This document shows positions 17,706 through 60,368 of a stretch of 64,000 nucleotides of DNA, one piece after another; position 1 is the first letter of the stretch, and each line of letters opens with the position of its first letter. Under the pieces are notes generated by a model. The model was given only the letters and a program-made list of their open reading frames with translations, did no database searches and was not told where the DNA came from. Where the stretch lies: contig OZ316892.1 in NCBI GenBank assembly GCA_973895155.1, forward strand, positions 9,094,283 to 9,158,282, read 5' to 3'. This stretch comes from Marsupella aquatica (taxonomy: Eukaryota; Plantae; Marchantiophyta). Made by a program: the position numbers and the translations under genes.

Positions 17706-17857
17706 AACTCGGATCCGTACTAGTAGTTAGCTGTCAATTTTAGCAATACTGACTTTGGTTGGAAGGGCTAGGCCAAGTAGAGAGCTAACCTATTAATCGC
17801 AGAATTTCCTACTCATCTCAGGACATTGAGTGCTTCACAGCCCTCCAATCAGCCCTC

Positions 17858-33000: not shown

Positions 33001-34084
33001 CAAGCCTTAATATTTCATATTAAGGTCAAAGCAAGCTTGAGGGGTAGTGAAAAATCTCTCATTTTTTCCACAAAAGACATAATTCTTGTCCATATTCCAT
33101 GAATATTTCATAATGACCAAAATGTGACATAGAATGGTTATGATTGCTTGGAATTTTTTTTAGGTTAGATATATATTGCATGCCAAGGCTTTGGAAGTGC
33201 GCACATTCAACATTATATATCCAGCCCTGGCTACCCAGAAACGTCACACCCTAGCTGTCTACTCCTGAAATGAAACTTATGCCAATACATTGGTATTTTA
33301 CTCTTTGCGACCAACTCTTGGTGTTAAAGAACAAGGCCTTGCTGGCCTCTTGGCTGGACTTCCCGTGAGTCCTACAAGCTAGAGTTTTGGGGCCCTGTCT
33401 CATTGAGAGGAGTTATGGTGCGCCACAGATTTTGACTCCAGGGCCTCCAAATATAGGGTTTTAGTTTTATTCCTTTTCCACATGTATAAAAAAATTCTCT
33501 TTGAGTTCAAAATTTTTAAAAGTGGAAAAGCTGGTGGAAAACCAGTGTTTCCAGAATTTTTTTCTATAGACCTACCTCTTATACAGCTTATACAAGATTT
33601 GCATACCCTCAACGTACATTCTTTCATCTGGTTCCTCACTCACAAGCCTTAACTTTTCAGCTCCGTTCACTCATGGGGTAGTCAAAGTTAAAATGGATTA
33701 AAGATTGGTGATCTGGTATCGATCAGCAGTTGCTTGCGCGGACAGCTGAACGCCTTGTTGGACTGCGCAGAACGTGGATTAGAGACTTGTGATCTGGCAT
33801 CGACCAGCTGTTGCTTGTGCGGACAGCTGAACGCCTTGTTCGACTGCTCAGAACGTGCGAAATCAGCCAATTGTTCATATCCAAACTTCCTGACTCCCGC
33901 GTACATAAACACCACCTTGGTCCGCAGACTCCATTGTCTACTTTTCTCTCATTTTGTTTTCCTTGATTCTCTTAGCACCTCCTGTCGATCTCTTTGCTTT
34001 CTTACGCAGTGTAGTTTCTTCCCATTGTTAGACTTGGCACACTTTGAAGTTCTGCTTCTCTGTAGAAACAGCGAAGACGTAGCT

Positions 34085-34739
34085 ATGGCGAAAACAGGAC
34101 TTGCATCTCTCTGCCTCCTCCTGGTCCTGGCAACCTTTGCAGTGTGTGCGCTTGGCCAGTCGCCCCGATATACCCTTGTTCACAACAGTGCTAGCTTCGA
34201 CATTACACATCGTAAACAGGTTATACACGGTGATGGCTCTGAAACAATTATCCCCTTTTCCACGCTGGCGCAGGGCACCACGGAACAGTTCCAAATTCCT
34301 GTGGACGTGTCATGTGTTCGCACTTCGTGAGTTAGCTTAACTTCTCATTTTGTTGTTGTTGTCCTTGTGTACTTATTTCACACCATTTACGAACATTCTA
34401 TGTAGCAAGTGACAGAGGGAGTCTAACTTTGCCTCAGAGTTAACACTATAATTAACACTATAACCCTTATTTTGCTGGTTTTTCTCGACGGTGCGATTTA
34501 CCGTGCACTCTATAGATCGACCGCTTGACATGTCCCTTAACTGGTGGCGCAGGTACTTCCAGCTCTCTGCCAAAAACCTCGGTCAGGTCGTCCTCGACTG
34601 GTGCGACATTGGCATGACAGTTGATTGTTTGCCAGAATGTTTCTGGATAATCGATGACACCGGATTCTCGGTTGCAAATTCTAAATCTGCTATTCTGCAA
34701 TTTGTAGCTGCTTGGAAGACGATGGATGAGCACGTTTAG
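34085..34739 (+). CDS. Second paralog of the small secreted SPH-like protein, 142 aa; exons 34085-34326 and 34553-34739
   Basis: Same exon lengths (242 + 187 nt) and splice sites as the 26146 copy, with a shorter intron. Confidence 0.72.
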
Positions 34740-37700
34740 TTGTGCTCAAAGAAGAAAACACTGGCGCATACTTACTTTAATATGCATACTGGATTGTGTT
34801 AGGAGGACAGTTTCAGTTAATCTGATAGACATCTGAGCTAGGAACGGTTTCTTGAATCTTCTTTATCATCACCTATCTTGTTCAGAGTTTCACAATAAAA
34901 CAACCATTCCAGTGGATGTAAGACTTCGATATCGCGATCTCTTGTGAATCGCCCGGTAGATCTTACTGAAGGGCTTAACTTTGCTGCAACTGATATGTTT
35001 CTTTCTTGGCATGCTTTCATTCGTGGTGTCTCACATTGACATTTGATTCATTACAAATTCCAATCCCCCGTTTGACACCACCCCGGTTCATAAGCTAGGG
35101 CTTAACTTTGCTGCAACTGATATGTTTCTTTCTTGGCATGCTTTCATTCGTGTGTCTCTCATTGACATTTCATTCGATCATTACAAATTCCAATCCCCAG
35201 TTTGACATCACCCCGGTTCATACTAATTAACTTTGATCCCTTAGTTTACAGTAACCCGCTTGCCTCATGGTTTTATGCTGATCGAAAGGTCTGGAGCATG
35301 TTGGGCTGGATATTAGGGAGGCGAATCTGTTCATAATTGATTAAGAGACAACAAACTTGAACTCTACTTAGCATCTTATCCAGAGTTAGTCCACTGGTTG
35401 GAGGCATAGATAGATCATGTTAATGAGGGAGTTTTAGGGCCGATTTGTGAAAGTCGGCCCTAAGTTGGCTCTAAGTTGAGAGTAAACGTTTTGGTGTGAT
35501 GAGGCTTAGTTCATTAAAAATCGGTGGTCGTCCGTCCCGACACTTTCTGTGCTATGATGGCGCGCTAATGTTGCTGTATTCAATCTTGAAGCTAAGTGTT
35601 TCGATATTAATATAGGTTTTTTGTATGGCTTTGGCTGGTCGCTCCAGTCCAGATCCCTATATAATGTTGCTGCATTCAATCTTGAAGCAAGTGTTTCGAT
35701 TTCATTATAGCTTTGTTGAATATATGCATGTGGATACAAACGAATCTAATTGAAAGTCCACAATGAGAACAAGTCCTTGCTGGCCTTCCCATGAACATAC
35801 ACCAAACACAGTCTTAGATCGAGGACTTCTACAGTACGAGCTTCAGAAGCAAATTTGGAAAATAGCAATCACAGATTCCCCCTCCCCGGCAAGAACTATA
35901 CCGCAACCTCTCTGTCTATAGATGTGTTGATCTTTAATGAGAGGTCGTCATTTGGAACTATTCGATCAGCTCTATAGAGACATATACATACGCGAGAAAT
36001 CTCGATACCGGAAAACTGAGGAATAACGGGTAAAGGGGAATATGGGCCACCCGACTCCAGTCAAACAAATCAAGTGATCGGTGATACCACGTACTGAAAT
36101 AGCAGAGACTGAGATACGTAGACTAAGATGGACCTGTTCTTAAAGCTATCGGGACATATTATTATCCTACGCTGAAGAATGCAACAAACCTACGGGAATC
36201 CCCTGAGGCAAAGGAACGGTGTTGTTGGTTTAATTACAATAACACCGCAGGAGAAAGTACAAATTCTGTAGTTGCAGAAACTAAATTTAGGTTGTAATCT
36301 GTTAAGTGGACAAAAATATGTGGCAAGCCAAAAGCCAAAAAGCAGTATGCCGCCAGACTACCGATCCACTGCCGTTCAGTCCCGTGGCGATTCATAACAA
36401 TACAAGCGGAAGGAACGAATTTAACCTCACAAAAGAAGATGATCCCGATTATCGACTCAAGATTTTAATGCCTCGTGAAGAGCTCGGTCGGGCGTTCGCA
36501 TCTGGACTCGGCGCGCAGTTACTCTATAAAGCTAATGCTAGACATTCTACCTGACAAATGCTTGCAAACGTGAATTCTACGGAAATTGTAGCCGATCAGA
36601 CCGGCAGGCAACAATATTAGTCTCAGCCAGAGCTTGCCTTGCAAAGGTGGTGCTAAACTAGCTAGCTAGTTCGATCGGCAAGTCTACAGTTTCGATATGG
36701 TAAACAATGCCCCCTAACAGCTCCACGCATCCCTCCCTCTCTCTCTCCGAATTGAGCATTGTGCGCTACCTTTGTTTACAAGGTCCATGGTTGTCAGTAT
36801 AGTACTTTACCTGGCCCCTCCAGAGTAACCTAGCTTAGGAGGAGAGAATGTAGATCAAGTTGCCTTCCTCGGTATAAAGAAAGTTAAGAAAGATTGGAAG
36901 CATTGGTCACGAGCTTTTCCACGTGCGACATGTTTTTTTTGTCGGAAGGATTGGTCCATGAAGTTTCTGAACCTTCCGCGCTGACTCACTACAGGTCCTG
37001 GGCCGTCATACTGGGCTCACTCAAAAAAACAAAGCACAACGTAGGGAAGCCAGCTTTATTGAAAAATCATAAAATTAATAATGGGGAAGAATGAGACTTC
37101 AACCTAAGGCAGGTTAGGAGTATAAAACACATGGATATCAAAACGCCAAACTGACAACTATTCGAACGATATCAGATTATAGATTGAAAATTTGTCTTCC
37201 TTTCCCCCCAAAACTGATTTTTGTTGATACTGAGGAGATTTTCTCTAACATAACTTTAGGTTGGCTAAAGTAACTATAAATTTTACTTATGTGGTGCCAC
37301 ACAAGGCAAAACTGTCACATGCCCCTGGTAGGAAATCAAATTTATACTATCTTGTGTGCCTTTTTATCTAGCTTGACATTGGTATTCTTAAATCCTACTT
37401 TAAAAAAGACAACCCTAGAGAATTTGTATTTTCCTTTGTTAATAAGTGGGGTTCTGCCAATTTACTTGTGTTCAGACAGGAATTTTTAGACTTACTTACA
37501 AACACTAAAACTGCCCGTAAATTTTCAACCAGAGCATCAGTTTGGGCTACAAAAATGGTGTCAATGAATCCCAAATGGGTAATTGTAGTGATGCATGAAT
37601 CATTACCTAATAAAACCATTCTACAGTAAGTAATACAGGTTCTTGCACGGGTTCTTGTTCCTCTTAAAAGTCCCAGCCCAAAGACATCCACTACCTCATG

Positions 37701-42000: not shown

Positions 42001-42964
42001 TGGTGGGAATTTTTTCCTTGGTTCATGAGTCATTGTGTAACTACTTTAGTCCCCCTTTCTGTAGGATTTATAAACATATTTAAAAATATATTTTTGAGTG
42101 AATTACATTCATTTGGTTTTTACCATTGAGCAAATTACTTTAGGCAGTATGAGTAAAATGTGAAGCACTCAATCTACTCAAAATGTCATCTTCAAAGAAG
42201 GCTAGATAAGGTATTTATATAAGTACCTAAATGTGCTTTACATTTTATCTTTTTTATCAAACTCTAAAAAAATGCTTAGAATAACTGTGTGGAGGGGAAA
42301 GAGTAAGTTGGAAGAATGAACGTAGTCTTCAATTAAAGTGCTTTGGCCTCTGTCTATGTATCTTTAAGAAAAAAATGGTAACAAAGTTTATTGACAAGGG
42401 AAATACTGGGACAGAATTGATGATTTGGTTGCTTACTTTGCGTTTTTTGGACAGAAGAGTAAAAAACAATATGCAAGCATATTCTTACATTTTAGTCAAG
42501 TCCATGCAGGTTTTTTAGTCAAGTCCGGATTTTTTAGTCAAGTCCGGATGAGAGCTTCATGGACAACATGCAGGTCCATCCGGGCTTTAAGTTCGAGGGC
42601 CAATGGTTACTTACACATCATGTTTACCATAAATATGTGGGTTGCATAGTTGTAACCAATTTCCAAAATTCACTCAAAATGAAAAATGACCATACACAAC
42701 TTTTTATAGAAAACAGAAATAACCGGCCGGGGAAATAACAAGGGGTAAAAGGGATGCGGTCATGATCAATGGGGGGTTCACTTGGGGGTTAAGTTACTAA
42801 TTTTACTTGGAGTGAGGACCCACATGGGGTATCCTTGTTTTTGTCTCCCTATTGTTTCATCATACTCAATACACTAATATTGAGTGTAGGTTGTTCTCTG
42901 TATGCTTGCATTAATTTTCTGTAGATTATTTGGATGAATTTTACTATAAAATTGTTTAAATCAC

Positions 42965-43155
42965 CACCCTATTCATTAAAACTGGAATTTCTCTAGTCCA
43001 GAAGTTGACCTTCAAATTTATTATTTTACCCCCAAAAATTCTATAACTTGTTCCCCAAAAGCATACATTTTAGTGGCCAAATATACACTTTTTGAGGTCT
43101 AAAATTACAATTCTAATGCCCAAATTATTAATTAAATAATTCATATATCAATTAT
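42965..43155. mobile_element. Degenerate relative of the MITE at 49462-49800
   Basis: Starts caccctattcattaaaa and shares the internal aaat(a/g)tacacttttt...tgcccaaat motifs. Confidence 0.5.
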
Positions 43156-43655
43156 AAATACTTATTAATTAAAAGATAATAAAGTGTTCTTATTATATAC
43201 AATATAAACAATGGAAAAATAGAATAAGACAATATAATAAATTCAAATGACCCGTGATAACCAAGTTACACAAACAGGGAAGGTAAACCGGTGATGTATT
43301 ATAAAAGTAAAAAACTTATTTTTACAGGGTCGAGACCACGTCTGCCCCAATGCAGGCTCTAGATGGTTTTGATCGGTTGTTGAATGTATATCAATTACTA
43401 TGTAAAAGTCTATGTCAAGATTATCTTGAGCCAAATGTAGGGTCCACATAATTTTGACCCATTGTTGAATCTATATCTTTAGCTATTCTCTTTGTATAGG
43501 GTCGAGACCCAAATAACCTTTTTTTGAGAACATATTTACAAGTAAAAGAGGATCAACAGCATCTAGACCCAAATGGATAGTACGCATAGCTTCACTCTTT
43601 TTTCTAGTAAGAATATGTATATCTACAACTCACATCGACACTGTTCAGTGCAGGG

Positions 43656-44692
43656 TCAAGATAATCTAGACCCAAATCTCATGCTCCTCCACCCCGCAGA
43701 ATTCATTGAGCAAGTAAATCTAGACCCTGATGGGTCATATTTCATATTGCGATTGCAGAAATTGAGAGGCTTTATATTCCAGAACTTCGTGGTGAGGTCC
43801 CTACACCTCAGGACTTCTGAAAGAAATCCCCAATGATTGTCTCTGTAGGGTCCTGTATACTGATCTCCAATTAATGTTTTTGCAAGGTCGTTGATTGCCT
43901 CCTCCGTCAATTCCTCCATTGGTGGTAATTGTTGCACTTCATTCTTGACATCCCAAGGAATTTTGTCCGCTTTGACATCCAAGACTGAATGGATAACAGA
44001 ATGAACCCATACCATACTACCCCATCGCTCTGTCAACAACGCATAAATGGCAACTTGTTGATCTCTGTCCGATAAAACATTTATCATAGACCACTTTGGA
44101 TGATTGATAAAAAGGTAGTGCTAAAGATTGAAGGCATGATACAATTTCCTGAGCAGAGGCCACAGTATTTCTGGAAAGAATGTATCATCCGTGGAGTGAT
44201 GCGAAAATGAGGAAGGAAACAACCCACAATTCTCTGGATTTGCAAACCCCTTCATTGGAGTGTCATCAAGAAGGAGTGTATTAGTTTCATCGTATAATCC
44301 ACCATAACGTTTCCAAACAACCCTCAAATCCTTCAAATGAATATTTGCCTTCCCATCGGTAATGTCAAGCCTCTGGATTCCAGTATCGAATGTATCTTCT
44401 TGTGTGAGAATAAACTTGAATTGCTCTTGCTCTTCTTGACTGAAGATCAAATGAATCATTTCATTCGTCCTGGGTTTCCTTGCACAAGTCCAAATGGCAA
44501 CATCAAATATTAACAAAAAAGCTGCGATTAAGAACTCGTGAAGATGGGACGTTGCTCAACATACATAAAGTTAAACCCTCCATGTCTCCCCGAGTGGACA
44601 CCCTTGACACTTGTCGCACTACGGCGCGGTCCGGAACTTGGCGTTTTGACAGAATCCCAACATATTTTGTTGAGGTCAAGAATAAATAGCTT
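43656..44692 (-). pseudogene. FCP1/NIF-family (HAD-like CTD phosphatase-type) domain protein, disrupted
   Basis: KLFILDLNK (cf. KLLVLDLNG), then after a frameshift FDVAIWTCA and TLLLDDTPMKGFANPENCGLFP (cf. LLIDDSPYKA..NP....FP). An in-frame stop at 44121-44123 reads on into ORF 43656..44087. Confidence 0.75.
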
Positions 44693-45004
44693 CCATCAGA
44701 TCGGACCATGATGAAGTGGAGGCAAGGGTCCTGCAAACAAAAAAAACCAATGTTAGAATTGTGGGAGATAAAACAGAGGAATGCTCGAGACGATCTCAAG
44801 CATCACAAGTGAATGAACAACAGTCAATGTCATCATACTTGTTGTTGGTTGAAGGCCAGTAGTTGAAGAAATCTTAGGACATCTTCGAAGATTATTGTCG
44901 ACGCACTCCATAACTGGCAAGGGCCCGCCTATTTCTGTGAAGGTAGACATAATAATTTAGACGGCTGAATTTTAGGACTGTTCAAACTAACTTGGGTTTC
45001 AACC

Positions 45005-48000
45005 TCATGTGCTGAAAGACCCAAATTCATCTAGAAGGTTATCTCCTAGTTGGTTTTGGATGTCCAAATTTATCCCTCCAGGAAGGGTCTCAACAAGAGC
45101 TGGTTCAGACCAAACTGGCACTAATTTGAACTTATCCTTCCTATACTTTCTAGATCGAATAATCTTCTCAGACTGCTCTATACTGACTTGTTGACCTTTC
45201 GACGGTCCATCAGTCCAAACATAATGAGTAGCACTTGCTTTGAGTGATTTGTAACCAGTTCTACCAATTTTAGTCCCCGGTTTCCTAACAAAAGGGAGAA
45301 TTACTGGGCTTCCAGTAGAAGAATCTGTGAAAACAAGCTTATTCTCTGAAGCGCAAAACATTTGGTCCAAGGGAGAGGACAATGCACCTGCCTCGTCCTG
45401 AGGGGGAGTATGGGAGCGACTAGCTTTCTTAGTAGAGAGAATCTCATATAGTTGAGGAGGGCTTGGAATTGGTTGACTAACTGCGTCCTGCAAGGTGGAT
45501 TCCTAGCCAATGTTCATCCAAGGTTGAAGAGTGTTGTTCACATTGTGCGTCCCCAAGGCCACCCGATGAAGGAACACCTGGAAGGTCGAGATCATCTCGA
45601 GCATCATTTCCAAATTCAGGCAGTATTTCACCCTCCTCTTCCATGTAGCTTGGGATTTTTGGGCCCTCCGTTTTGCGATGCTCTACATTCTCCGCAAATA
45701 CTTCCTCAAAAATACTGGTTTCCACCGGAGCTATGTCTGAGGCCGCCTCTTCTATAAGAACGAGGGGACCGGCAATAATTTCTTGAGATGCTAACGACTC
45801 TGTGGGTGGTACATATAAAACCTGCTTGTTGTCATGGAGGAGCTGAGCAAAGGCTTCTATGCATTCCATCTCTTGGGCTGTGTCCAAATACACAAAACAA
45901 TCCCAACCAAGAATGACACAAGCTTTCAATGTCTGTCCTCCAGAGAAGAAATCCAACATTGTGTGACCTGGGCCGGAGAAATAATCAATAAGACGCTTTG
46001 TCATTCGCAAAGGCTTTGTTCTCGGGTTTACAAAGCCACCCCGCCGACCGACCATCTCATAAGATGGGGTCATCTTCTCCAAAACTTTGACATCAACAAT
46101 ACATTCATCGAGCTTATCTTTCCCCTTTGATTGGTCTTTGTTGTTCCCAGTAGGGGCCTTCAAAGACAAGATTGTGAAGTCTTTGTCCCACTTCTCACTG
46201 TAGTTCCAAAACGCATAAAAGTCATCAAAGAAAATTTGGGACCAGTTTGGTTCCTCTTCACAACAAATTCCCCCAAAGATGATTGAGTCTCGGGCTCCAA
46301 TGAGAAAATCTCCCTCCTCCTTGGGCAGGTGATCACGGTAGTAACTCCCGTACTCCAGCTTCGTGTGGACTTTCTTCTCATGACAAATCTTTTCAAAGGC
46401 ACTCTGAATCTGGCCTATCAATGGGCCTTGACGGACAAAAAAGATTACCAAGAGCTCAGTCAAGTTCGCCATCTGCAAACAATACTCCAACAAGACAAAA
46501 AAATTGGCATCTGTCCATTGCTGTTGTCGAAGATGACCAAAATTGACAATGGAAAGTGAGCATGTCCTTTGCACCGAGTCAACAATCTCAGGCTTCATTG
46601 TCCTCATCAAATTATCGCTAAAAAATGTGCGATAAGGAGTATCCTCCATTGAAAGGCATCCCGCCAAATACCTTACAATATATCTGCTCAAGCCTAACAA
46701 TGAGACTTTGCGGAAATGGGTCTTTTGGCCTATTTCTTTTTAGGAGGTTGGAAATCTAAACCTCTCCAGCAAGTTGTCTAAGTTTGGGCAACTCACCACA
46801 ATCCATAAATGCAGACAAATATTGAGTTAGCTCAAACCAAGTGAGTGAATTGGCAAACCGATCCGGATACTTCAAAACGAAGTACTCCACAATTTTTGCC
46901 CTCAGCTTGGTCATGACTTTGAAAGTACGAGCCATATCACTCATTGATTGAACATCAGATTTGTTGGTTGGGTCTTTCTTCAATAAAACCTTCTGATGTT
47001 GAACGGCAATAAAAACTTTTAGAATGTCGTCAATACTCAGGTCTCCTTCAAAGCATCTAAACAATGCCGGCGTAATCATTTTTGTTGTCCAGGATTTCCC
47101 ATTTATTTTTGAACCTAACTCCCCTAGACCATCCGAAAGAAGTCCCTTGACCCAATCGATGCACATTTGTCTCCAAGACTAGAAGAGGTTCTCTTCCGAA
47201 AAAAGCAACCAAAAACTATTCCTCACATTGGATTTTCCAGTCGTTATTTTGGCCAAGGCCATAAAATCCTGATCCAAACAGTACAAAGAAAATCTGAGGC
47301 TGGAGACGATCTCGAGGTAGAATTAAGGAACTATGTTGAAATTTATGGGAGAAGACATGAAGATAAATCAAATACAAAAACTTGACCTCGAGGCTCGAGA
47401 CAATCTCGAGCTAGAAGTGGATTTGAGTTTGAATATACCTAGAACTTTTGATGATCCGTTAGTCTATTGGATCCAATCACGGGTCTCATTTGACGGCCAC
47501 ACTCGTCAAACTGTCGACGGGCATGGACCATAGTATCAAGAACACAGGACTCATACTCCATGGTCTTGTTAACAACATTTGCCCTTTGTGAGTGTTGAGC
47601 AAGTATTGTTCTTGGAGTTTTGTCCAAAAGAATTCGTGACTTTCGATACTACAGACTCTTGCAACCTCCTTCAACTTTGCATCGCTCTTAGCCCAACCTA
47701 TGATCCAAACAGCTGCATTTGCTGAGTGTTGTCCACTAATTGCAAGGAACTGCACCTTCTTATTCTTAACACCCCACTCAAACTCCTTTCGATCCTCAGG
47801 AGTATTCTCATAATGGACCAACTATGAACTCTCTCTTGAATACGGAATTAAATCCGCCACAGCTGGTACCATTCCAGGGTTTCTAACCATGGATTTTGCA
47901 ACCTCAATGGCATGGTCTTTATTGACATCCTATATACCAATACTGTAGAAGGTGAATCTATACTAGTAACAAGAATGTCAAAATTTTCATTCATGCCAAA

Positions 48001-48379
48001 TGTGTAATACTCCTCAATCTCCTTAAGAACTTTGGCTCCTTCTTTAACGCTCTTTTCTCCCAGAGCATCTCCTGGAGTTTTGTCATCATTGGTATGTGCA
48101 CTCACACCCAAGGAAGATGCCGGAATGAGATCTACCTTGGGTGGCGCGGAATTTTTTGGAGGTGGAGCCTTCTTCGCTTTGCTTTCGGGTTTGTCAACCC
48201 TCTTCCTCTTTTGAGACACCTTTGCTTCCTTTTTGTCCAAACCGGACGTCTTGTCTCCTACAGCTACGGATTTCAATTTACCTGTTTGTCTTCAATGAGA
48301 CAACACCCACTTTTTACAAGCATCCTCGTCAAATTCTCTGGCTCCAAACACAAAATCAGGGGATATGGATTCAAACTCC
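45005..48379 (-). pseudogene. ParB/sulfiredoxin-like domain fused to an N6A/N4C (beta-class) DNA methyltransferase-like domain with an acidic tail; disrupted and 5'-interrupted by the CACTA element
   Basis: Joined frames give YR-DVNKDHAIEVAKSMVRNPG...FLAISGQHS (GQHS at 47723-47734) and VNPRTKPLRMTKRLIDYFSGPGHTMLDFFSGGQTLKACVILG (~45900-46030; cf. HPT.KP..L...LI...S..GD.VLDPF.GSGTT..A....G). There are several TAG/TGA stops and frameshifts and a probable intron at ~47271-47438. Confidence 0.7.
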
Positions 48380-48680
48380 CACTAGTAGAAACCGGGGGGT
48401 ATTTAGACCCCATTAAACGACTATTCAGTACCGTATAGGACTTGGAAACGACTGGGAAGGACTCTAGTCCTTTATAGGACTGCGAGTCGTATGTTTTGTT
48501 ACTATAATCAACTGAGTCCTTTATAGAACTGGTTTATAAGTCGTTTAATAGACTGGATTTTCAGTCTATTTTAGTCTTTGTGTGGGTAGCTTTGGTGAGT
48601 CGTTTTTAGTCTTTTATGGGCTGCGATGATGAGTCGTTGGGAACGACTAAAAAGGTTATGGAGGGTAGTCTTTAAATATA
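48380..48680. repeat. CACTA TIR and subterminal AACGACT/AGTCGTT repeats
   Basis: Multiple direct and inverted copies next to the TIR. The preceding trinucleotide TCC (48377-48379) is the predicted TSD. Confidence 0.85.
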
Positions 48681-49205
48681 CTTTGTGGGGTATGTATAAG
48701 TCTTTTATGTCAACTAGATATGAGTGATGAAGACCCCACTATACTACTTGGAATGAACCCACTCTTGTGCACAAATAACATATTGCATTCATGTTTTATT
48801 GTGTACTTGGAATGAACTCACTCTATAAGTTCACCATTCATCATGTTAACATTAGAATACATAGTTTCAGAAAGCCATCTTCTATACCATGTACACTAAT
48901 ATGAATTCACAGATTCAAACTTCATAGACTACAAAGAAGGTCACAAAGTATTCCTCTATACCATACACACTAATACAGAAATGATAAAATAGATTCAAGT
49001 ATCATAGACAATCACCATAGAGCCATAGTTTGACATCAATCACTTGTTTCATACATACAGAATTCAGAAATATCAATGTCACACACAACGTCTCCTTCAT
49101 CCTCTTTACCAAATGGAAAAATTGGTACAGATATTTCTTGGATCTTTCCAAGGCAATGTCAAAATGTGACACAATTCACATGATGCTATCTACACTTGCA
49201 TTCAG

Positions 49206-52200
49206 TCACTGCAGACTAACACACTCTGATGGCCAGAGCACAAGAGATCCTACTGCATCTGCAATTATTTCCTGAGGTGGATCATCGTCTCTATTCGGAA
49301 ATGGCAAATTACAATCAGATACAATCACTGTAGTCAACAACACTACTACATGGTCATCCGGGACCACTTTGCCATGGAATTTTGCATGATCCGGTCGCAA
49401 AATGCCTGTACCCACACATACCTGCGAGTCATCCTCCCATGATAGAAGATTATGGACTGATCACCCTATTCATTAAAAGTGTATTTTATTTTGTTCACTT
49501 TTAGGCCTCGAAATGTACACTTTTTGGTCTCTAAATGTACACTTTTTAACCCCAAAAGGTATATTATAGTACAATACTCTACACCTAAATAGTCAATTGT
49601 AAACTTGAGAGAGAAAAAATGATCTTTACTAGAAGGAGTCTCATCCTAGTTCATTTATAAAAGATGAACATGGTGATATGTCTGATGGCCATCACCTTTA
49701 TTTCTTGCCCAAATGTTTACTTTTTGAAAGCCAAATGTACACTTTCTATTGCCCAAATGTTCACAAATTGAATAATAATTCACTTTTAATGAATAGATTG
49801 ATACTGGCTCTGCTGTGGCTATCACCTCCACCTTACCCTGGCTGTTTTTCTTGGCTTTCCTGGGTGGCTTATACATGACATTATTCATACCTTGGTTGCG
49901 AGTCATGACTTTGGCACGAGTGTTTTGTGCTGGTGATCGAGAATTGGCTACACTCTTCTTCAAAGAATCTGCATCCATATTTGACACTTCTGATTGTGTA
50001 GCAGGATTTCCCTGCGACATCATCTCAGTATCTGCCAACATTGTACTTGCTTCAATTGAAGCATCTACAATCTTACTTGCATCCAATGTTGCTCCCAAGT
50101 TTCGACGTCGCTTCACCCTACTCCCACTTGGTTGAGAGTCTATCAACTCTGCATCAACTACAATTCAGTGTCATGTCCAACATAAGTCAATCACTCATCA
50201 CATGTGCTAAATGTACATGTCACCAACCACAAAGTTGTCACTATCTCCTTACCATTATGAACAGCCTTCTTCCCCTTCTTTGCCATTGCCATATGCTCCA
50301 TGTCTGCTTCTGTTGATCAATAAACACACCACAATATTCAGGTTGAATCTATTAACCACTGAATTGTTGCTCAACATTCATATAGAGGAATTTAAAGCAT
50401 CAGCTTACCTGATACCTCCTTGGCTATGGTCACTGAGGCACTGGGCACATCTTCTTCATTATTGCTCTTTGAATCACCTGATACATCAATCATGATGTCA
50501 CTTCAGATCCCAGTTCATCCAACCAGTTCTTACAGAAAAGATTACCTCCAACCGGCTTAAGCTTCACAAAACTCCATGCACTTTTCAAATGTAATGTATT
50601 GGATCATAGCAGGTTACCTGTCTCAGCAACCTTCTTGCCCTTGTGCTTACTGATTACAGGGTCCTTCTCTGCCTCCACTCTTCCTGCATTCAAACCATTC
50701 ACTCAATTCATGAAAACTTACTTCTAACATTTGAACATAGGACACAATGAACAATGGGCCGGTGTCATTTCCATACCTGTGTCAGATTTGCCAATTCCCT
50801 TTTTTGTTAACAAGGGCACACTTTGTACAATGTTGCCCTCATTGTTTGGTTGGGAACCACCCAATTTTTCAATCACAAGCTTGAAATTAGACTCCACTGA
50901 TGCAAGAAGGTTCGCTACAGATGCCTCCACAATATCCAAACGATCAGCCAATTTACTTTCCACTCGAGGGAGTCCACACTCTAATGACTTCAACCGTTCA
51001 CACATCTCTGTGAGAGTTGTAACAGTTCCCTGTCATAACACAGCTTACATATCTCAGATAACTGTCCCCAAGAACTGGTTGCTTACTTCCTACTACATTT
51101 CTTTCTGATGCTCAAGGCCAAATAGTCACAGAACATACAGAATTACAACATAATCACCTGTTTGGAAGTTACACTTGTCACCTCACTCCTTTGTTTCATG
51201 AACTCCTCTCTCACTTCTTGTGCTGATGGTTCTTCACCTGTCAATTTCTTCTGCAGTCCACATCAACATACATATGAATGAAACCAAGTGTTGATTGTCA
51301 ATGAAAATGTAATAATGGTAGCAAGATGATAAGTTTGAAGCTTACTATCAGGCATGTCACTGCCTTACCAATTGTTCTTTCACTGGAGCATAACTTCCTC
51401 TCCCAGCCTGTGAAAGGTGTTTCACTTTGCCTCGAGCATTTGACATCAGTTCACTCTTGCTCTGTCCAGCCTCCGACATGAACCCTTTGATTAACCGTGT
51501 CCATTGATCCAGTTCCAATGATGGGGGTGGTGGCATTCTCCTGTTAGAACCATTGTCTATCCACATCCTTTTCAACCTATGCCTCTCTTGTTTCAAAATC
51601 CTCATTGCATAATCTGATATGCAATCTTCAACTGGGCCCTTACCATCATTACCAACATACTCCCATCGTTCAAGAATGTCCTTGCAGATAGCAGCCCAAT
51701 CAGCTTTGTTCTGACTCCTAAACTCTGTAATGCTCAAATCTAACCAACGCAATACTTCTCCTCTTAGGTCAGAATGCCAACGGTTCTTACCATCACATGT
51801 GGGAGTTATCCAACCTTCGGAATTCACTTCTACTTTACCAAATTTGTTACTGTCTCCTGCCTTGGTACTCCCTGAAGCGCTACTAGGTGTCCCTCCACGG
51901 CCTGGTGTCCCCCCACGGCCTGGGGTCCCTCCACGGCCTGATCTCCCCCCACGGCCTGGATTGCATTGTCCAAACCTCCCTGGAGTCCCTGCACATTTAC
52001 AGGATCCATTTACAGTCACTTACATTAGGTAAGTATGAATCATAAATCCCGCTGCCAAATATACAGTGGACTTCAGAGCAATTCTGCAATGACCAAGTTA
52101 CCTCTCCCTTGGCGCATAGATGGTTCTGGACCACCTGTCCTATTGCTTTGTCTTGATGAATTAGGGGCGTTTCTCCCGCCTGTGAATGATTGCCTCCTAT

Positions 52201-52724
52201 CTGAACGTGGATGGCCTTTGTTGTTTTCGTGATTGTCCCAATCAGAGTCTGCATACCAACAGGTACATGCCACACTCATGGACCTATAAGATAAACTCTT
52301 TGCCCTAGCTACACATCAGATAAGTGCATATTGAGCTAAATCTCTACTACCATCACAAAATCACTAGCACAAGGCACTTACTTGTCCAATCATCCTCCTC
52401 ACCTTTCCATTGCCCTCTGTACCCGTCTCTACCACGCTCTGGGTGTTCATATTCATTCCATCCATCTTCTGCTCCATCATAGTCATCATCATAATTATTA
52501 GGCGTCCCTTGCCAATAACTCTGGCTCCTTCTAGGGTATGGATTATGTGATTTCTCTCTAGCTGCCCACCTACCTGGGACTTGATGAGGGCCCTGTGCAT
52601 CTTGCACAGGTGCATTTTTCTGTGAGCCCCCTGCATCTGGGTCTCCATCCATATCCAATCTTTCCTCTTCACCCCACTCTCCAAGCCCCATGTTTGTCTC
52701 CATGTCATCACCCTCTTCCCCCAT
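49206..52724 (-). pseudogene. CACTA ORF2 (TNP1/TnpA/Ptta-like), multi-exon, last exon split by a MITE
   Basis: Exon ~51367-52020 has PGRGGT repeats and PPPSLELDQWTRLI...KSELMSNARGKVKH...GRGSY. The terminal domain reads FHGKVVPDDHVVV...LPFP...IADAVGSLVLWP. Many small minus-strand GT-AG exons lie between them and were not fully reconstructed. Confidence 0.75.
49462..49800. mobile_element. 339-bp MITE with ~20-bp TIRs and apparent 2-bp AT TSD
   Basis: TIRs CACCCTATTCATTAAAAGTG / CACTTTTAATGAATAGATTG. Removing the element and one AT restores the ORF2 frame (EPVSVHNLLSWEDDSQVCVGTG). Confidence 0.85.
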
Positions 52725-52901
52725 AGCTTTTGCACAACACCCACAACCAAACAGGGAGAATCAGCACACTAAATTCAAAGTATCAATCAATTTCATGCAT
52801 ATCCAACTATCCTAAACATCATTCCAGGCAGCAATTCCCGTTATGTGACTCTGTGCAGGTAGTCATCCTCAACCTCATACTTGTCAATCGCCAGCTGTTG
52901 C

Positions 52902-55900
52902 CTATTGCAAATCATCAACCTCATCATATTCCATTTGCCCAGGTTCATCATATGTCTCTCTCAATGTTAAGGGGATGTAGTCAGTCTCTGCCCGAGTTGG
53001 AAGTACAGTCTCATGACTAGGATGCTCGAATGCAGCATGGTCATCCAAACTGAACTCTACTTTACTTCCATCCATCCGCCTGTTCCGTGCTTGGCTATGG
53101 CATACCACCCTCCAGCCATGTGACTCCTCCACATCTGCAAAGAAAGCCTGTTCAACTTGGCTAGGGAAACAAAAGGCTCAGACCATTCTGGTACTCTGGA
53201 CCTAAAATTGGCCAACAAGAACCCATCATGATCACGCTTCATGGTGGCCCTTGGTCTCTGCCACTCTGATTTCACCCATGATCCCTTCATCAATATCACT
53301 GGGACACTTGTGTTACCATAATTCAACACCCAAATATCGGTCAACTCCCCCACGTAACCCATCTTCATCCACCCCCTCTGTTCTTCAGAGGTTCTCTGCT
53401 CAAACACAGAAATCAAACCACAATCATATGATACACAATGGTCACCCTGCTCATCCCTCACTCGATAATGATTTCCATAAGCTCTCATCCGTTTGTAGGT
53501 CAGAATAGACAATCGTGGTGGCACAGATAGAAGATACAAATCCTTCTCCATATCTGGGTGATGTCTACTATGCTCTCGAATTGTCACCCGAATCCACTGC
53601 TCGAACTGTGGGAAGGGATCCTGCTGCCCAGAGTGTGCAGCTTTTTGCATATCATATTCCCTGCATTATGAGGTACAGGCATAGTTAGGTCTAAACAACA
53701 CATGACAACCTAAGATCACCCTTGGAACAGACAAGAAGCATCACAACAAAGGCAAGTCAATTCAATCACTCACCTCCACCATGGTTGCATAGGCTCTGTG
53801 TTTGCCAGCACATATGAATGAGCCTTGTCTCAAATCGCAACAGGCAGCTGAACAGCACGTCCCACACCTTCAACAACCTCGCCACTCACTCCATCATCTT
53901 CACCAGATTTCCAAACTCTTGTCATAGCTTCACCAGACCCAGCCATGTACTCTGTTAGGAATCCCAACGTCTCATCCTTAATGTACCCCAATGCCATGGA
54001 AGCCTCTGGCCTGTAGTATGTTCTCACATGACCTTTCAACAACTTCATGTATCGCTCCATAGGGTACATCCATCTGGTACTGACTGGCCCATACTGCCCT
54101 AGCTCTTCTACCACATGGATTAGGAGATGAGTCATAACATCAAAGAAAGCAGGGGGGAAGTATATCTCCAAGTCACAGAGGACATAAGCAGCATCCTGCT
54201 TCAACTGCTCCAATCCTTGGGGATCCCACACTTTCACACATATACGGCGAAATACATTGCACAGTCGAAGAATGACATTACGGACTGATTTCTGCATGAG
54301 ACCTCTGAGGCATAGGGGCAGAATGTGCTGCATCAACACATGGTAGTCATGTGTTTTCATACTGCCAAGTTTATTCTTTGTAATATGCTTCTTGAAGGCA
54401 CCAGCATAGCCAGAGGGCACTTTCAGACAGCTCAATCTATACAAGAATGTCTTCCATTCATCCTGTGTGCACACATAGGGAGCTTGGAACTTGAGAAGTA
54501 CATTGGGATTGCTTGCATGGGGCTTCAACCAAAGGTGAGGGCGAATCCCCTTCTGTTGCATATCAGCTCGAACTGCTCCTGTATCTTTCTCACCCGACAA
54601 GAACTTCAGCAAGCTCTCACAAATATTTTTCTCAATGTGCATGACGTCCACATTGTGTTTGCTGGACTCGAATTCCTGCACTCCACAAAGCAAAGAATTC
54701 AACAACAGAAACACTAATTAACCACATAGGAGGATTGTAACCAACATCAATCCACCATTGCTCCAATCTAAAATTGCAATCATACAGGGGCTGGAGGCTA
54801 AGTACATTACCCTCCAGTACTCCAACTCCAAGTCCATCAAGGTCTGTCTTTTCACACCGTGTTTCACCACTGGATCCTCAGGTTCTCGATCAGTGGCACT
54901 TCTCTTGTCCCAATCAGCCTTCCTGGCTGCCCACCTCAGGACTTGCTCTCTGGTGACCCTCTGTGGTGGGCCACGAAGCTCTGTTTTGTTGTTGAAGTGT
55001 GCAATTTGAGACCGTGTGTGCCTGTAAGGATGATCAACAGGCAGATACCTTCTATGCCCCTGAAATTTCATACTGTGCAGGGCATGCGACCACTCACTTG
55101 TCACATTTTTCCCACATGGTGTGCACCCCACATAGCCCTTTGTCACTCATCCAGATATGATGCCATGGCCTGGGTAATCTGCTATATCCAGCAAACAAAT
55201 TGCATGCAGTCTAAAGGGGCTGGGTCGAAGAAGCCCCTTCAGAACATCATGGGTTAACACCCCTTCTATCCACAAAGTCTTCCACTCTTCCACTGCTGGA
55301 GCCAACATGATATCTATGAATTGCTCGGTCACAGAAGCTGGTCTAGGGATTAACAGCACCATCATGACAAAAAACCTCTTTGTAGTCATCCATGGGGGAA
55401 GGTTGTAATTTAGCAGCGTAACCGGCCAACATGAATAACGGTTGTTTTTGTCTCCAAATGGGTTTACTCCATCCAGTGATAGACCAAATCGAAAGTTCCG
55501 CTTCTCTGCAGCAAACTGTGGCCACCTCTCATCAACAAATTTCCAATGGTTGGAATCTCCAATGTGACGTTGCAGGCCATCACTGCTCTTGTTATCAGGA
55601 GTCCATGTCATCAGCTTGGAAATGGCAGGGCATCTAAACAGACGTTGTAGTCTAGGAATGAGAGGAAAATGACGAAGAACCTTGGCAGGGTGTGTACATT
55701 TCCCTACATTCTTGTACCTGTGCTTACCACAATGAGGGCATGTCAATTTATCTGCATGCTCTTTGCGAAAGAGAACACACCCATCAGGGCATGCGTCAAT
55801 AGACACATAGTTCAGCCCAAGGTTAGACATCAATTTCCTAGCCTCGTACATATTTTTTGGAATTGAATTACCATCTGGTAACACATTTCGGCGCAGGAAG

Positions 55901-56601
55901 GTCAACAACTCTGTCACAAATATATTGGGAACATTGTGATTGCCATAGATGTTCAACAACAACACGACAAAACCCAGCTTGGAGCAGTTCGACCCCTCGT
56001 AGATAGGAATGCAAGCTTCTTTGATGTGTTTTGGGCCCCCAAACACCCACTCCCTCTCTGCTGCACCTTCCCCAATGTCAAAGTCAGGTTGAGCTTGGCC
56101 GTCGCCAGTGTGTGGCTGCGGTTCATTGTCCTCTTCTGATTCCACTGTGTCGTAAAAAGCATCAAGGTCTTCAAAAATCTCTTGAACCATTCTTGGGACA
56201 TCCATCCCACCGTCCTCAGTGACTGCCTCTGCATCTCCATCTTGGTCATCCACGTTCTCATGTTGGACCCCAGGACCATCCTCTGCACAGTCTATGTCCT
56301 GCTCTACGTAGTCTCTACGCCTAGCTGTATTAGAATCCACAAAGTCAGCTCTCCACTCTTCATCAGAGGAGTCTTCTTTTGCTGGTACATTCCAAACCCT
56401 CCACCGAGGGTGCCTTTCATGCTGCAGCAGGTGAAGGTGCACAGTGTTCAAACTCAACGACTTGAATCCTTGGCACTGTGTGCATGGGCATCTCATCCTC
56501 CTACTCCTACCTTGGGCGGCCCGGGCTTGTTCACGCATCCACAATTTAGAATCATGATGCCTAATCCTAAATGGGTTGTGAAGAGGCAACCTTGGAGCCA
56601 T
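52902..56601 (-). pseudogene. CACTA transposase TNP2/TnpD (Transposase_21 with DUF4218/DUF4216-like regions), disrupted
   Basis: Motifs CPCTQC, IDACPDGCVLF, LRHFPLIPRLQRLF, LSLDGVNPF, YNLPPW, DYPG, HNVDVMHIEKN, MKTHDYH and RWMYPMERYMK. Introns at ~54676-54810 and ~53661-53773. Premature TGA at 55147 and 53830, and a frameshift at ~53165. Confidence 0.95.
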
Positions 56602-56927
56602 CACTATACACACGCACTCAGCACCCTGTCATTTTATTATGCAAGTGAAAAATACACTTCCTGTTAAGGATTTCACCCCCGACTGTACTTGCCAAAATAC
56701 GTAACGTTCCAAAAAAACAAAAAAACAAAAAATATAGGTGCCTGAGTCATGTACCTATTCTCAAGTGAATGAGACAAAATTCCTAAATTTTTGAGGGTGT
56801 CAACTCCTCCGCTGTCCTCACATGTACTGCCTCTGCACGTACATCCATGACCATATCAGAGTCCAATCATGTATAGTCATAGACACAGGTGCCAGGTGCG
56901 AGACCGGTGTGAGATGTCCTCATCTTA

Positions 56928-57461
56928 CTACCACATCAAATACGGATACCAATCCTGTTGTCGATGCCACTCAGCCCTGAGGTACTCAGGCATGTACATT
57001 AAGTCATCAAGGTCTAAACCCTGCTCATGCCATGGTGGTCTTCGATCCGTGCCTACAAGCAGTGGCAGCAGTGCCCTCCATGGTGCACATGTTGCTACCA
57101 AGTCCCTCCATTGGGTACTAATTAGTCTATATTTGCAGATATCTTGTGCGCCAGACACCACAAGAACCCTCGGCCAGACATGTGTAAGAACTATATCATC
57201 TGCCAAATCAGGCAACAAGGAACCACCTACAGCATCGTGCTTGTCTAACTCATCTGCTGAAAAGTAAATGTCCTCTTCCGATTGTGCATCCTCATTCACC
57301 ACAGCATTCACAACACATCCAAGGTCTGCAGGCATTATCTCGGATGGAGCTACACTCTGTCTGGTTACCAATCCACACAAGTAAGCCCAAGCAGTAGCCA
57401 TGCACGATGCAACCCGTAGGAGGACCCTACATAGGGCCTGACGGTCTGGAAGAGGCAGCAT
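56928..57461 (-). CDS. CACTA cargo: small F-box-like protein
   Basis: SLLPDLADDIVLTHVWPRV...ICKYRLISTQWRDLV fits the F-box consensus LP.LP.di...I..rl......r.vsk.Wr.lv. The frame is open; the start codon is uncertain. Confidence 0.65.
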   Translation of the reverse strand: MLPLPDRQALCRVLLRVASCMATAWAYLCGLVTRQSVAPSEIMPADLGCVVNAVVNEDAQSEEDIYFSADELDKHDAVGGSLLPDLADDIVLTHVWPRVLVVSGAQDICKYRLISTQWRDLVATCAPWRALLPLLVGTDRRPPWHEQGLDLDDLMYMPEYLRAEWHRQQDWYPYLMW

Positions 57462-57637
57462 ACCCACCAAAGTCTTCAGCCAAACAGAGCCCAGCAAGTA
57501 GATTCACAGTCACACCCCACGCAGCAGGAAACAACAATCACTTCAACTGCGACCAACCATGACAAGATGAGTTAGTTCAAGGATCACATTTATTACAAAA
57601 TTGTGTTTTATACAAAAATATGAGGGACTCCTACTCC

Positions 57638-58486
57638 TCACTCTCTCCCACCTTTGCTAAGCATACATCTCCGCTGAATCTTGGAGGGCCAGGCCTCAAA
57701 AATATCAAAGTCCCAAGCATTCTGTCGCTTCCCTCTAGCTGCTGATTCCAGAAGCCAATCAGGGGAAAGCACCCAAAGATTGTTGTTCATGACAAAATCA
57801 CGCACTGTTGTCTTAAAGAATTTTCTGCATATTTTCATGTATGACAGACCTACAACATGAGTGGAGGTTTCTATTAGACTCTCCTCCACTGTCCCACCTA
57901 GCTCAACAACTATAGACTTGTACAGTCTGCACTTAGTCTCCCCAATTCCTTCTTCTGCAAATACCACACTGAACCCCTTCATAATGGTATTTCTCTCCTT
58001 GCCATGCTCATTCAATATAGCATCTGCACGCATAGGATGGTGTCCTATGTTGACAACAGGTCCATATTGGACAGAAGCAAAGTTGGGTTTCTCTGCCGCT
58101 GCTTCATAGGCTTCCTTTTCAGCCAAAGCCTCTGCAGTGGCCTCCTCACTCTCCCACAACTCATATTGCTCAGTACTCTGTACACACCTATGTTTAACAG
58201 AATCGGTCAGCCAAGAGACTTCAACTACTTTTAGACCTTGGTTGGTAATGGCAGAATCAATGAAGGACCATGACCACTTGTTCATCACATCCAGCCATGT
58301 CCCCGCAACAACATGTGTAGTCTGTGGAGTGATGTCCTTGACTTCAGTCCCATGGAACTCTGAGAATCGTTTTTGTACGATTGGCCAACTCACTTGGGTG
58401 AACCCATAGTGGCCAGGAATCAAAATGGCTTTGATTCCAGCCAACAGAGGCGGGTGGTCAACCTTTGTACGTTTCCTAGAGGCCAT
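57638..58486 (-). CDS. CACTA cargo: intronless tandem-BRCT protein (~282 aa)
   Basis: Two repeats: TTHVVA...VVEVSWLTDSV and ELGGTVEESLIETSTHVV...VLSPDWLLES. Basic N-terminus MASRKRTK. ORF is intact. Confidence 0.85.
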   Translation of the reverse strand: MASRKRTKVDHPPLLAGIKAILIPGHYGFTQVSWPIVQKRFSEFHGTEVKDITPQTTHVVAGTWLDVMNKWSWSFIDSAITNQGLKVVEVSWLTDSVKHRCVQSTEQYELWESEEATAEALAEKEAYEAAAEKPNFASVQYGPVVNIGHHPMRADAILNEHGKERNTIMKGFSVVFAEEGIGETKCRLYKSIVVELGGTVEESLIETSTHVVGLSYMKICRKFFKTTVRDFVMNNNLWVLSPDWLLESAARGKRQNAWDFDIFEAWPSKIQRRCMLSKGGRE

Positions 58487-59078
58487 GTACACACGGGCCA
58501 CCTAATCACTGCAGACCGGAAGATAATGCGTTCACCTGATAATCGGAGGGCCCTTAAAATGCTGCGTTTATAACTTGGTCCAGTCCAGTCGTCTGGTGAG
58601 TCTCTGCTCCGATTCCAAACGGGAGAAATATTGGGACAAACGTACTAGACACCTGCAAGCATGCACCTCATAGTTTGAATATGTGCCTTCACAATATTGA
58701 AGGTGACAAGTGCAATTGTTTTGTGATGCCACATACAGATGTTGTAAATGGGCAGACATTCAATGAGAATACAAAATGTTGGTACACTTTAAGGGAATTC
58801 TCGCAAATTAAATAGCCTTGTAACTTATATGCTCATAATGAGAAGTCCTGATTTAATTTAAGCAGTGTCATGTAAGTCGTGATCAAAATGATTGCAGAGT
58901 TAAAAAAGTTCCTAGAAGGCTTAAGGGCAGTTTTTGAAGGCATGTACCCAGGAACAAGTAATGAACTTAGGGTACTTGTTGCCTAAGCATCCTCTCCTAC
59001 AGAGGTCCTTCTTCTCAAAATTGGAATGTCTGCAATCTCCAAGGTATCCACATCAGGTGCACTATGCATGTATATTAT

Positions 59079-59699
59079 TCAGGTTCTAAGCCAAGAAATG
59101 TGATCTCTCATGGGAGTGTGCAAAGTAGGATCTATGGCATGGCGATGACAATAGAAGATCCATCGATCAACACCATGTGCAGAGTGATCATAGATGTGTC
59201 TGTCACAAGCATAGCCTTCTGCTTGACGCTCCTTCAAACAATGAAAGTGCCACATGGTGGGACACCTAACACAGTGGACTATGTCCACCCAGAAATCTTC
59301 ATCGTGCTGACCACATGCCTTGCACTTCTGAAGTGGGCAAGCTGTGGCAAGATCGGGCAAACATGAAAAACAAAAGAACCTCACACAATATCTGTCAGGG
59401 CATTTCCTAACAAGTGGTGGAGCATCAACAGAGCCCTCGTAAGACCCCAACTTCCCACAATGTGCACACTTAGCCTGCTTCTCCAAACAATCAGTGCACA
59501 TCTAGCCTCCCTGGTGTGTTGACGGGAGGCCCACCCCTGGACAGTTGTTTTCTGCAGCAAGGTCAGACTCCGGGTTGAGGTGGAAATGCCTCATGCAAGG
59601 GCCCTCACATATGGCTAAGCCACTACCATCTGGCCCAACTACACCTGTGTTGCTCACCTCTGTCCCCCGCTTCTTGGCTCGGATTTTAGGGCGTGCCAT
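59079..59699 (-). pseudogene. CACTA cargo: stand-alone EDM2-type composite PHD finger protein (~206 aa, one TAG at 59502-59504)
   Basis: CEGPCMRHFH..C..CTDC..CAHCGKLGS..C....C..FF...C..CPLQKCKAC..CVRCPTMWHFHCL..IFYCHRHAIDPTLHTPMRDHI. This parallels the EDM2 PHD region, including its IYC..HEID..L.TP.RDH tail. Confidence 0.8.
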
Positions 59700-60368
59700 G
59701 CCTACGCATGAGACAGATAGTACAATTTAGCAGAGTGCACGGACAATACAATTTAGTGCAGTGTACAAAAAGTACAGTGTAGCATATAGACTAGAGTGGC
59801 AATTGCTACTGCAATGAAATGTTCACACACATGTGCAGAGTAGACATACTTTTTGGTTTGTTGAGCCCACACTAAAAACTGATCCCCTCGTACAATAGCT
59901 CCACCTACACCTCAATTTTGTGGCTATGATTCACCAAAGGAGATCTGCAACAAGATTTAATGCATTTGAATCACATATAACAGTCGTGACATGTAAAACA
60001 GGCATTTTTTGAACAGGATTGGTATCAAGCACTGTGATCAGGGTTGTAATTTATACATCCTAAATAGGCTATGATAGTGAATGAGACAAATAAGTTAGGC
60101 AGAAATCACTTTTTCCAGGTTATCACATGGCCCATTAATTCCAGTCTTTGAAAGGAGACTTTTAAGTGAGCTTGCTAGCCTCTTAAATTAGGATATTGTA
60201 CTTAGTGCAGCCATAATAGGATAAGTTATGTACTGTTGACCCTAAACCCTGGACCCAAAATAGGTCATAATTCAAAATCTTAAGTAAATATCCTCTCTGT
60301 TCAAGTCAAAGTGTTAAGTTATAGGTCAATGGTCTCTGGTTTGTGCATGCGGTGTGACAAGTGGTCCT

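Follow-up and report, generated by a model that had tools for sequence, protein, structure and literature searches.

Only a few cases of prokaryotic-type amino-methyltransferases are known in eukaryotes. Acquisitions of writers of N4-methylcytosine (4mC) have been named for Marchantia and Adineta (PMC12344493). For CcrM and N4CMT, the target amine is described as bound by the residue that opens motif IV, (D/N/S)PP(Y/F/W), and by the first proline, while the aromatic residue stacks on the base (PMC10406627); the canonical beta-class topology agrees with that account. DndB has been placed in the ParB superfamily (PMC10853773), the D and R of the DGQHR motif are reported to be near-invariant, and the related motif of GmrS has been proposed to bind nucleoside triphosphate (NTP) (PMC4619093). 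Here we describe 64,000 nucleotides of the liverwort Marsupella aquatica (contig OZ316892.1, positions 9,094,283 to 9,158,282 of the forward strand; this whole stretch is called the window), in which a broken gene joins a probable ParB-like domain to a beta-class amino-methyltransferase (MTase) fold and lies in a repeated element, here called the host element, that is interrupted by a CACTA transposon.

Our best explanation, to which we give about an even chance, is that a spliced gene of a multi-copy, CAC-ended element is present in the window as a decayed copy, and that its intact product would be a DNA-binding pseudo-methyltransferase, not a writer of 4mC or N6-methyladenine (6mA), that aids transposition or escape from 5-methylcytosine (5mC).

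The gene and its protein family

With the MTase piece of 286 amino acids as query, HMMER run in full against 1.84 billion representatives returned 43 proteins at E<=0.001 (best E 3.5e-52, 37% identity). P0038, a prokaryote-type protein of 1598 amino acids in which a long N-terminal region is followed by three tandem beta-class MTase domains with DPPF, matched through the C-terminal block only and was excluded from the family, leaving 42. The family comprises at least 42 clusters at <50% identity with the same motifs kept. Named sources among the 30 proteins looked up were Riccia sorocarpa (P0041) and Calypogeia fissa (P0015 and P0019); P0041 has a near-identical second copy, P0048, on a contig of different size, and the other homologues looked up lie on contigs of 0.9-6 kb (P0038: 11 kb). 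In P0046 (1009 amino acids) and P0050 (1219 amino acids) the ParB-like domain, helical linker, MTase fold, acidic spacer and C-terminal domain occupy a single open frame, so the joining of frames did not create the fusion, and we regard this architecture as established. No description of the family was found in the literature searched; the family is real and apparently undescribed.

The window copy runs on the minus strand from 48378 down to 45005, and all the motifs named for it earlier are visible in the six-frame translation. Its parts, in protein order, are:

48055-48378, minus strand: lysine-rich low-complexity N-terminal region, with a stop at 48292-48294
47439-48054, minus strand: ParB/Srx-superfamily-like domain, probably of DndB/DGQHR type; it carries a YR box and SGQHS and is conserved in P0046 and P0050
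47269-47438, minus strand: predicted intron of 170 nt, GT..AG, phase 0, whose removal restores collinearity with P0046 and P0050
46654-47268, minus strand: conserved all-helical linker, with in-frame stops at 47179-47181 and 46756-46758 in the window copy
45831-46652, minus strand: amino-methyltransferase fold of the permuted beta class, in which motifs IV and I are non-canonical
46533-46544, minus strand: motif IV position, NFGH in the window copy, DFG(R/H) in near copies, D-F-x-R in the family
45936-45953, minus strand: motif I, the S-adenosylmethionine (SAM)-binding loop DFFSGG, one residue less than FxGxG
45401-45830, minus strand: acidic, poorly conserved spacer, with a frameshift near 45511
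45005-45400, minus strand: conserved C-terminal domain and true stop codon, TGA at 45005-45007, at the motif where P0001 ends

By tblastn, the stretch from 48126 to 45008 is collinear with P0046 and P0050, and P0050 has a lysine-rich N-terminus of similar kind. The similarity of P0003, P0051 and P0052 starts at one identical residue, at the intron position, as expected from gene calls running in from an intron, and we consider a spliced gene with the predicted GT..AG intron at 47269-47438 to be supported. The window copy itself is dead: it carries six in-frame stops and four frameshifts, of which the frameshifts at 47924 and 47660 and the stops at 47822-47824 and 47439-47441 fall in the ParB-like domain, and the stop at 45503-45505 is counted only under the register chosen at the adjacent frameshift. 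Contigs from four public DNA runs, with three organism labels and from three studies, carry compensating indels at 47924 in all four runs, at 47660 in three, at 46652 in three (the fourth has 46651) and at 45511 in two; runs X1 and X2 omit four letters there.

Methyltransferase-like and ParB-like domains

Taken by itself, the window protein gives a weak MTase signal: it matches PF01555 at E 3e-4 (21.2 bits, below the cut-off of 26.7), the PHROG 3008 DNA methyltransferase at E 9e-6 and M.RsrI at E 0.028, together with 126 weak phage matches, the 20 listed being all annotated as DNA methylases; each of these matches spans the motif X-I block alone. When PF01555 was applied to 12 homologues, four scored above the cut-off, six matched below it and two gave no match. 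Motif IV stands before motif I, the order of the permuted, Rossmann-like beta class (PF01555), and the model of P0046 shows a complete and confidently modelled beta-class fold. The best matches in a fold search of a viral library included Pandoravirus N4C-MTases, with a phage protein annotated as ParB/Srx ranking third. A prokaryote-type beta-class amino-MTase fold for the gene product is supported by this modelling. Across 25 alignment rows with a median identity of 31%, 50 window positions are at least 80% conserved, so the fold appears to be under selection for something.

In the P0046 model, the last residue of the strand 492-496 (CAIVD) is the DFAR aspartate, at the position that opens motif IV. 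This site is covered by 18 of the 42 family hits and reads D in 17 and E in one, then F in 17 and L in one, then mostly a small residue, then R in 15, K in two and Q in one; (D/N/S)PP(Y/F/W) is found in 0 of these 18. Loss of the prolines and of the aromatic residue, being family-wide, is thus a family trait. Among near copies in the four runs, the N of the window reads D in 44-92% and its H reads R in 59-97% of summed contig depth, no change at a 3% share is listed for the F and G codons, and no (D/N/S)PP(Y/F/W) variant is listed; these shares refer to contig depth and are not to be read as copy numbers, and across motif IV a subfamily of greater divergence is unaligned. That subfamily, present in X1 and X2, is <80% alike exactly at 46501-46591, the region of motif IV, and aligns on both sides of it. 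At motif I, DFFSGG is exact in 18 of the 42 hits, with a one-residue gap relative to M.RsrI, and D/E-x-F-x-G-x-G is absent at this site from all 42, the family reading FFSGG. With the standard catalytic motif lost throughout the family, the product likely binds DNA rather than marks it.

The ParB-like domain of the window, P0046 and P0050 shares a YR box, a helix, NPG and F-x-A-(I/V)-SGQHS. Pfam DndB (PF14072) matched one of the five pieces weakly (E 0.017); the other profile libraries scanned did not recognise the ParB-like pieces, and there was no Pfam match to ParB_N (PF02195). Profiles were therefore compared with controls consisting of 39 column shuffles and the reversed profile, using a DndB-type profile from 15 proteins and a ParB_N profile from 27. 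By hhalign the DndB-type profile scored 25.3 (probability 10%) against 12.2+-2.5 for the shuffles (maximum 21.3) and 13.7 for the reversed control, with the QR-like and GQH boxes both aligned in register, and it matched one region in three of three sequences at E about 0.002 (a three-sequence search). The ParB_N profile scored 14.6, inside the shuffle range (maximum 16.3). The near-invariant D and R of DGQHR are both Ser (SGQHS) in the window, P0046 and P0050. Judged by these profiles, the N-terminal domain probably belongs to the ParB/Srx superfamily and is of DndB/DGQHR type.

The helical linker is 34-41% identical to that of four long homologues (P0001, P0003, P0046 and P0050) and 29% to that of P0051 (tblastn); residues 291-420 are helical in the P0046 model, with pLDDT mostly 80-95, and a Pfam scan gave no match. 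The acidic spacer has pLDDT <50 in the same model. The C-terminal domain matches P0001 at E 2e-25 and P0002 and P0019 at about 1e-13 (tblastn), and part of it is confidently modelled in P0046 as a small beta-hairpin/helix unit (residues 938-984, with blocks in 941-980 at pLDDT >90); general scans gave no family match for 45008-45400, the domain never having been used as a query alone.

An earlier note on this DNA had read the broken frames as one long protein of an intron-bearing gene. The open frames of P0046 and P0050 confirm the former, and the predicted intron bears out the latter. It had named the product a ParB/Srx domain fused to a prokaryote-type MTase; the beta-class fold agrees with this, and the other half, moderately supported, is DndB/DGQHR-like and not ParBc-like. 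The profile searches that it proposed gave the same division, with PF01555 under its cut-off in the window, above it in four of 12 homologues, and without a match to ParB_N. The atypical residues that it saw in place of DPPY/SPPY (IVNFGH, about 46533-46550) reflect a family-wide loss. A consensus of other copies, which it had suggested as a check, would not restore (D/N/S)PP(Y/F/W), because none of the 18 homologues has the motif and no such variant is listed in the four runs.

The host element and its surroundings

Outside the main gene, the features of the host element and of the insertion beside it are:

42965-42981, plus strand: terminal inverted-repeat 17-mer (5'-CAC...), one end of the host element
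43060-43110, plus strand: subterminal repeats (repeat family D16) in common with the miniature inverted-repeat transposable element (MITE) below
43330-43725, plus strand: five TC(G/T)AGAC half-sites near the element end
43656-44731, minus strand: second, separate, broken gene with a NIF/FCP1-like HAD phosphatase domain and a C-terminal part of no assigned family
44784-44800, unstranded: 17-bp interrupted palindrome CTCGAGA-N3-TCTCGAG, copy 1, between the coding parts of the two genes
45585-45601, unstranded: 17-bp palindrome, copy 2, within the acidic spacer
47300-47316 and 47394-47410: 17-bp palindrome, copies 3 and 4, both within the predicted intron
48380-64000 (right limit open), minus strand: nested CACTA/EnSpm element, with terminal CACTAGTAGAAA at 48380
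49462-49800, unstranded: MITE of 339 bp (inverted repeat I14, family D16) with the terminal repeat of the host element

The 17-mer at 42965 also forms both inverted ends of the MITE, and it has four matches at <=3 mismatches (shuffles: mean 0.38, maximum 2). Contig depth jumps at the bin containing 42965 in four of four runs, and one X5 contig ceases to align at that position. Contigs of the four runs cover about 42900-48400 entirely at high summed depth; 146-3502 contigs aligned per run, many at 90-99% likeness, this depth not being a copy number. An internal-deletion form joining 43051 to 47869 is represented by one contig each in X2 and X3 (two of the four runs). The host element is multi-copy, with deletion derivatives, and it is likely a DNA transposon of liverwort-like plants; the depth, the deletion form and the terminal repeat common to the MITE bear out the earlier suggestion of a repeated, mobile-type element. 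Its terminus starts 5'-CA and is accompanied by subterminal repeats, as in the CMCT/CACTA-like clade, at the one end seen. The CMCT clade is described as ending in 5'-CA..TG-3', with target-site duplications (TSDs) 2-5 bp long (PMC12730594), and the flanks of the MITE are compatible with a 2-bp or 4-bp TSD; a CAC terminus together with such a TSD would fit this clade, in which we tentatively file the host element.

Four copies of the 17-bp palindrome occur at <=1 mismatch and none elsewhere in the 64 kb at two mismatches (shuffle mean 0.07); three of the four lie outside coding sequence. This pattern was chosen by eye, and an unbiased search for the largest palindrome family was added, which gave four members in the element, at most two in 100 shuffles and at most three in the nine other window tiles. 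The half-site TC(G/T)AGAC, a motif picked post hoc, occurs seven times in the element against a shuffle mean of 0.69 (maximum 5, 200 shuffles). Palindromes and half-sites together form a candidate site for a dimeric protein encoded by the element. Another palindromic repeat family, GGGATCC/GGGATAC, lies at 1189-3669 and 10315-10349 (D20, I7-I9, I11), has three members in the unbiased test and adjoins an open reading frame (ORF) at 362-1156 on the minus strand.

The nested CACTA is a later insertion, since one X2 contig continues past 48380 without it. It matches Transposase_21 (E 5e-40) and DUF4218 (E 2e-27), and the transposase at 53833-56628 belongs to it and not to the host element; as to its far end, no CTAGTG was found past position 36000 of the window. 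The MITE sits inside the CACTA reading frame, and either empty site (2-bp or 4-bp TSD) would leave that frame open. ORFs inside or beyond the CACTA (56931-60983, on both strands) encode two BRCT domains at 57641-58501 (PF00533, E 5e-13), NSD-like PHD fingers at 59082-59501 (E 3e-5, below the cut-off) and weak F-box and FYVE matches, and are possibly chromatin-reader cargo of a CACTA. In the second gene of the host element PF03031 scores above its cut-off (E 5.6e-10) and TIGR02245 far below (E 2.9e-9), the first HAD motif reads DLN, stops stand at 44696-44698 and 44121-44123, and two letters at 44549 are absent from other copies.

Elsewhere in the window, an element at 3722-10077 on the plus strand is, by ORF content, a Copia-type retrotransposon whose long terminal repeats are 100% identical over 300 nt (D2), yet there are stops in the pol frame. 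Segmental repeats at 17300-35400, spaced about 3.4, 7.9 and 9.1 kb apart, include an ORF, present twice (25753-26388 and 33692-34327), whose product is possibly secreted and has no Pfam match.

Possible roles of the product and known systems

The earlier note had left two options, non-5mC marking of DNA or a derived DNA-binding fold; the second fits best, and the first is weakened by the family-wide loss at motif IV. We infer a DNA-binding role along the following lines. A prokaryotic ParB-type plus beta-MTase module would have been captured once, from prokaryotic mobile DNA, would have lost its standard methyl transfer and NTP chemistry, and would have been retained under selection as a DNA-binding scaffold. 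Its MTase fold may dimerise like other beta-class enzymes, and the dimer, with its ParB-like and helical domains, would bind the 17-bp palindromes and half-sites of its own element. The bound protein might then promote movement of the element or protect it against 5mC silencing by the host, much as VANC proteins do for VANDAL elements. Several observations weigh against this account. Motif IV opens with a conserved Asp (17 of 18), and DFFSGG is exact in 18 of 42; both would equally be expected of a site that is active or binds SAM. The placement of motif IV rests on a predicted strand end, and a global HMM alignment from sequence puts DPPF about five residues earlier. The fold model is that of a homologue, P0046, 23-26% identical in the MTase domain; a single-sequence model of the window protein is poor (pLDDT 34.6), and the ParB part of the P0046 model is mostly at pLDDT <50 with an alignment depth of 2. 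Neither the second end of the host element nor a transposase of its own was seen within the window, and one of the nine other tiles has a palindrome family of three, so such repeats are not unique to the element.

It is possible, though we think it unlikely, that the intact protein is an active non-canonical amino-methyltransferase, in which the Asp of D-F-x-R would hold the amine, the basic residue would take the place of the stacking aromatic, and the element would put 4mC or 6mA on its own palindromes, each perfect half of which contains TCGA, against 5mC silencing. The conserved Asp and glycine loop and the complete fold of the model would suit such an enzyme; 4mC is reported in a plant, Marchantia (10.1101/2021.02.12.428880), transposon-borne C5-MTases are reported to be capable of activity (PMC5890265), and Iyer et al. 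point to eukaryotic clades of permuted fold whose strand-4 motifs are unusual. Against it, 18 of 18 lack both prolines and the aromatic, the glycine loop is short by one residue, alignment to M.RsrI shows the acidic residue beyond the next strand to be displaced or missing, and Marchantia DN4MT1 and rotifer N4CMT are described as retaining SPPY. An extended form of this proposal we hold to be rather improbable: a liverwort DNA-transposon lineage of wide occurrence whose phage-like ParB plus beta-MTase module, with D-F-x-R as a new active site, would load on parS-like 17-bp palindromes and write 4mC, 6mA or another amino-base mark as self-marking against silencing, and which might be a reservoir for plant 4mC enzymes. 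An active product would have an active site unlike the standard one.

Less likely than an active enzyme, and improbable overall, is a fold that still binds SAM, S-adenosylhomocysteine (SAH) or a flipped or modified base and serves either as a sensor or, like METTL14 or MTA9, as an inactive partner subunit, acting on RNA or a partner protein and not on palindromes. That the stretch is what remains of an endogenised virus, or of some other prokaryote-like DNA, amplified later, and is not a transposon gene, is very unlikely: the top viral-library fold matches include Pandoravirus N4C-MTases and the ParB/Srx-annotated phage protein, and one stretch of a viral collection was reported to encode a relative (no locus was returned), but the predicted intron is of spliceosomal type, the terminal repeat is common to the MITE, an internal-deletion form exists, no virus hallmark gene occurs among the scanned ORFs, and three further viral scans gave no relative. 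Least probable in our judgement is a host liverwort gene captured passively (Pack-type) and decaying without function for the element. The four frameshifts and six stops of the window copy fit decay, and most homologues lie on contigs of 1-6 kb, which give no genomic context; against this, at least 42 clusters at <50% identity retain the same motifs, the frameshifts are absent from near copies, and in Riccia near-identical copies, at least two in number, lie on contigs that differ in length.

Under the pseudo-methyltransferase explanation the family, a diverse lineage (42 clusters at <50% identity) fused to a ParB-like domain, spliced, and carried on a repeated element of early land plants, would add a new kind to the accessory proteins of transposons, one for which a candidate binding site is already at hand. 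With the prokaryotic beta-class enzymes (CcrM, M.RsrI, M.PvuII, M.MboIIA; PF01555) it shares the permuted fold and the motif order IV...X-I, but at 8-14% identity, without (D/N/S)PP(Y/F/W), with a shorter glycine loop, with fused ParB-like, helical and C-terminal domains and with a predicted intron. MpDN4MT1a/b of Marchantia and bdelloid N4CMT, described as active host genes, keep SPPY, which the family here lacks; MpDN4MT1 is described as having no extra domains (PMC8885841), which sets the family apart from it, N4CMT has a chromodomain, and no Marchantia name occurs among the 30 proteins looked up. By its motif IV, read from sequence, the family falls outside the active beta-class enzymes and the SPPY-type eukaryotic 4mC writers. 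Relative to the DndB/DGQHR domain (PF14072, TIGR03187) and GmrS, of ParB/Srx fold, the QR-like and GQH boxes are in register, whereas the D and R of DGQHR are Ser in three of three sequences and scores are far below cut-off.

The MTases of phage ParB-terminase loci and the eukaryotic MTases derived from them (Iyer et al. 2016, Group-1 clade 6; chlorophyte-type Dam with ParB-HTH) likewise combine ParB with an amino-MTase from prokaryotic mobile DNA; these clades, as described, have unpermuted or Group-2 folds and occur in haptophytes, chlorophytes and chytrids, and differ from the family here. A land-plant, transposon-borne fusion of ParB/Srx with a beta-class MTase was not found in the passages covered of that paper. 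The N6A-MTase domains of DIRS1 retrotransposons are, like the family here, a transposon-borne amino-MTase fold, and are described as inactive throughout; theirs is a PCIF1-derived Group-2 fold in a retrotransposon polyprotein, here it is a beta-class fold in an element with terminal inverted repeats. In DNMT-retrotransposons, in those DNA transposons of fungi that carry TET/JBP (including the CMCT clade) and in VANDAL with its VANC, a gene of the element is reported to handle host DNA methylation, and VANC to bind motifs repeated in its own element; the protein folds differ, and the likeness of role is one of analogy. By that analogy the product of the host element may work most like the transposon accessory proteins that handle host methylation, namely VANC, the DIRS1 MTase domains, DNMT-retrotransposons and TET/JBP transposons.
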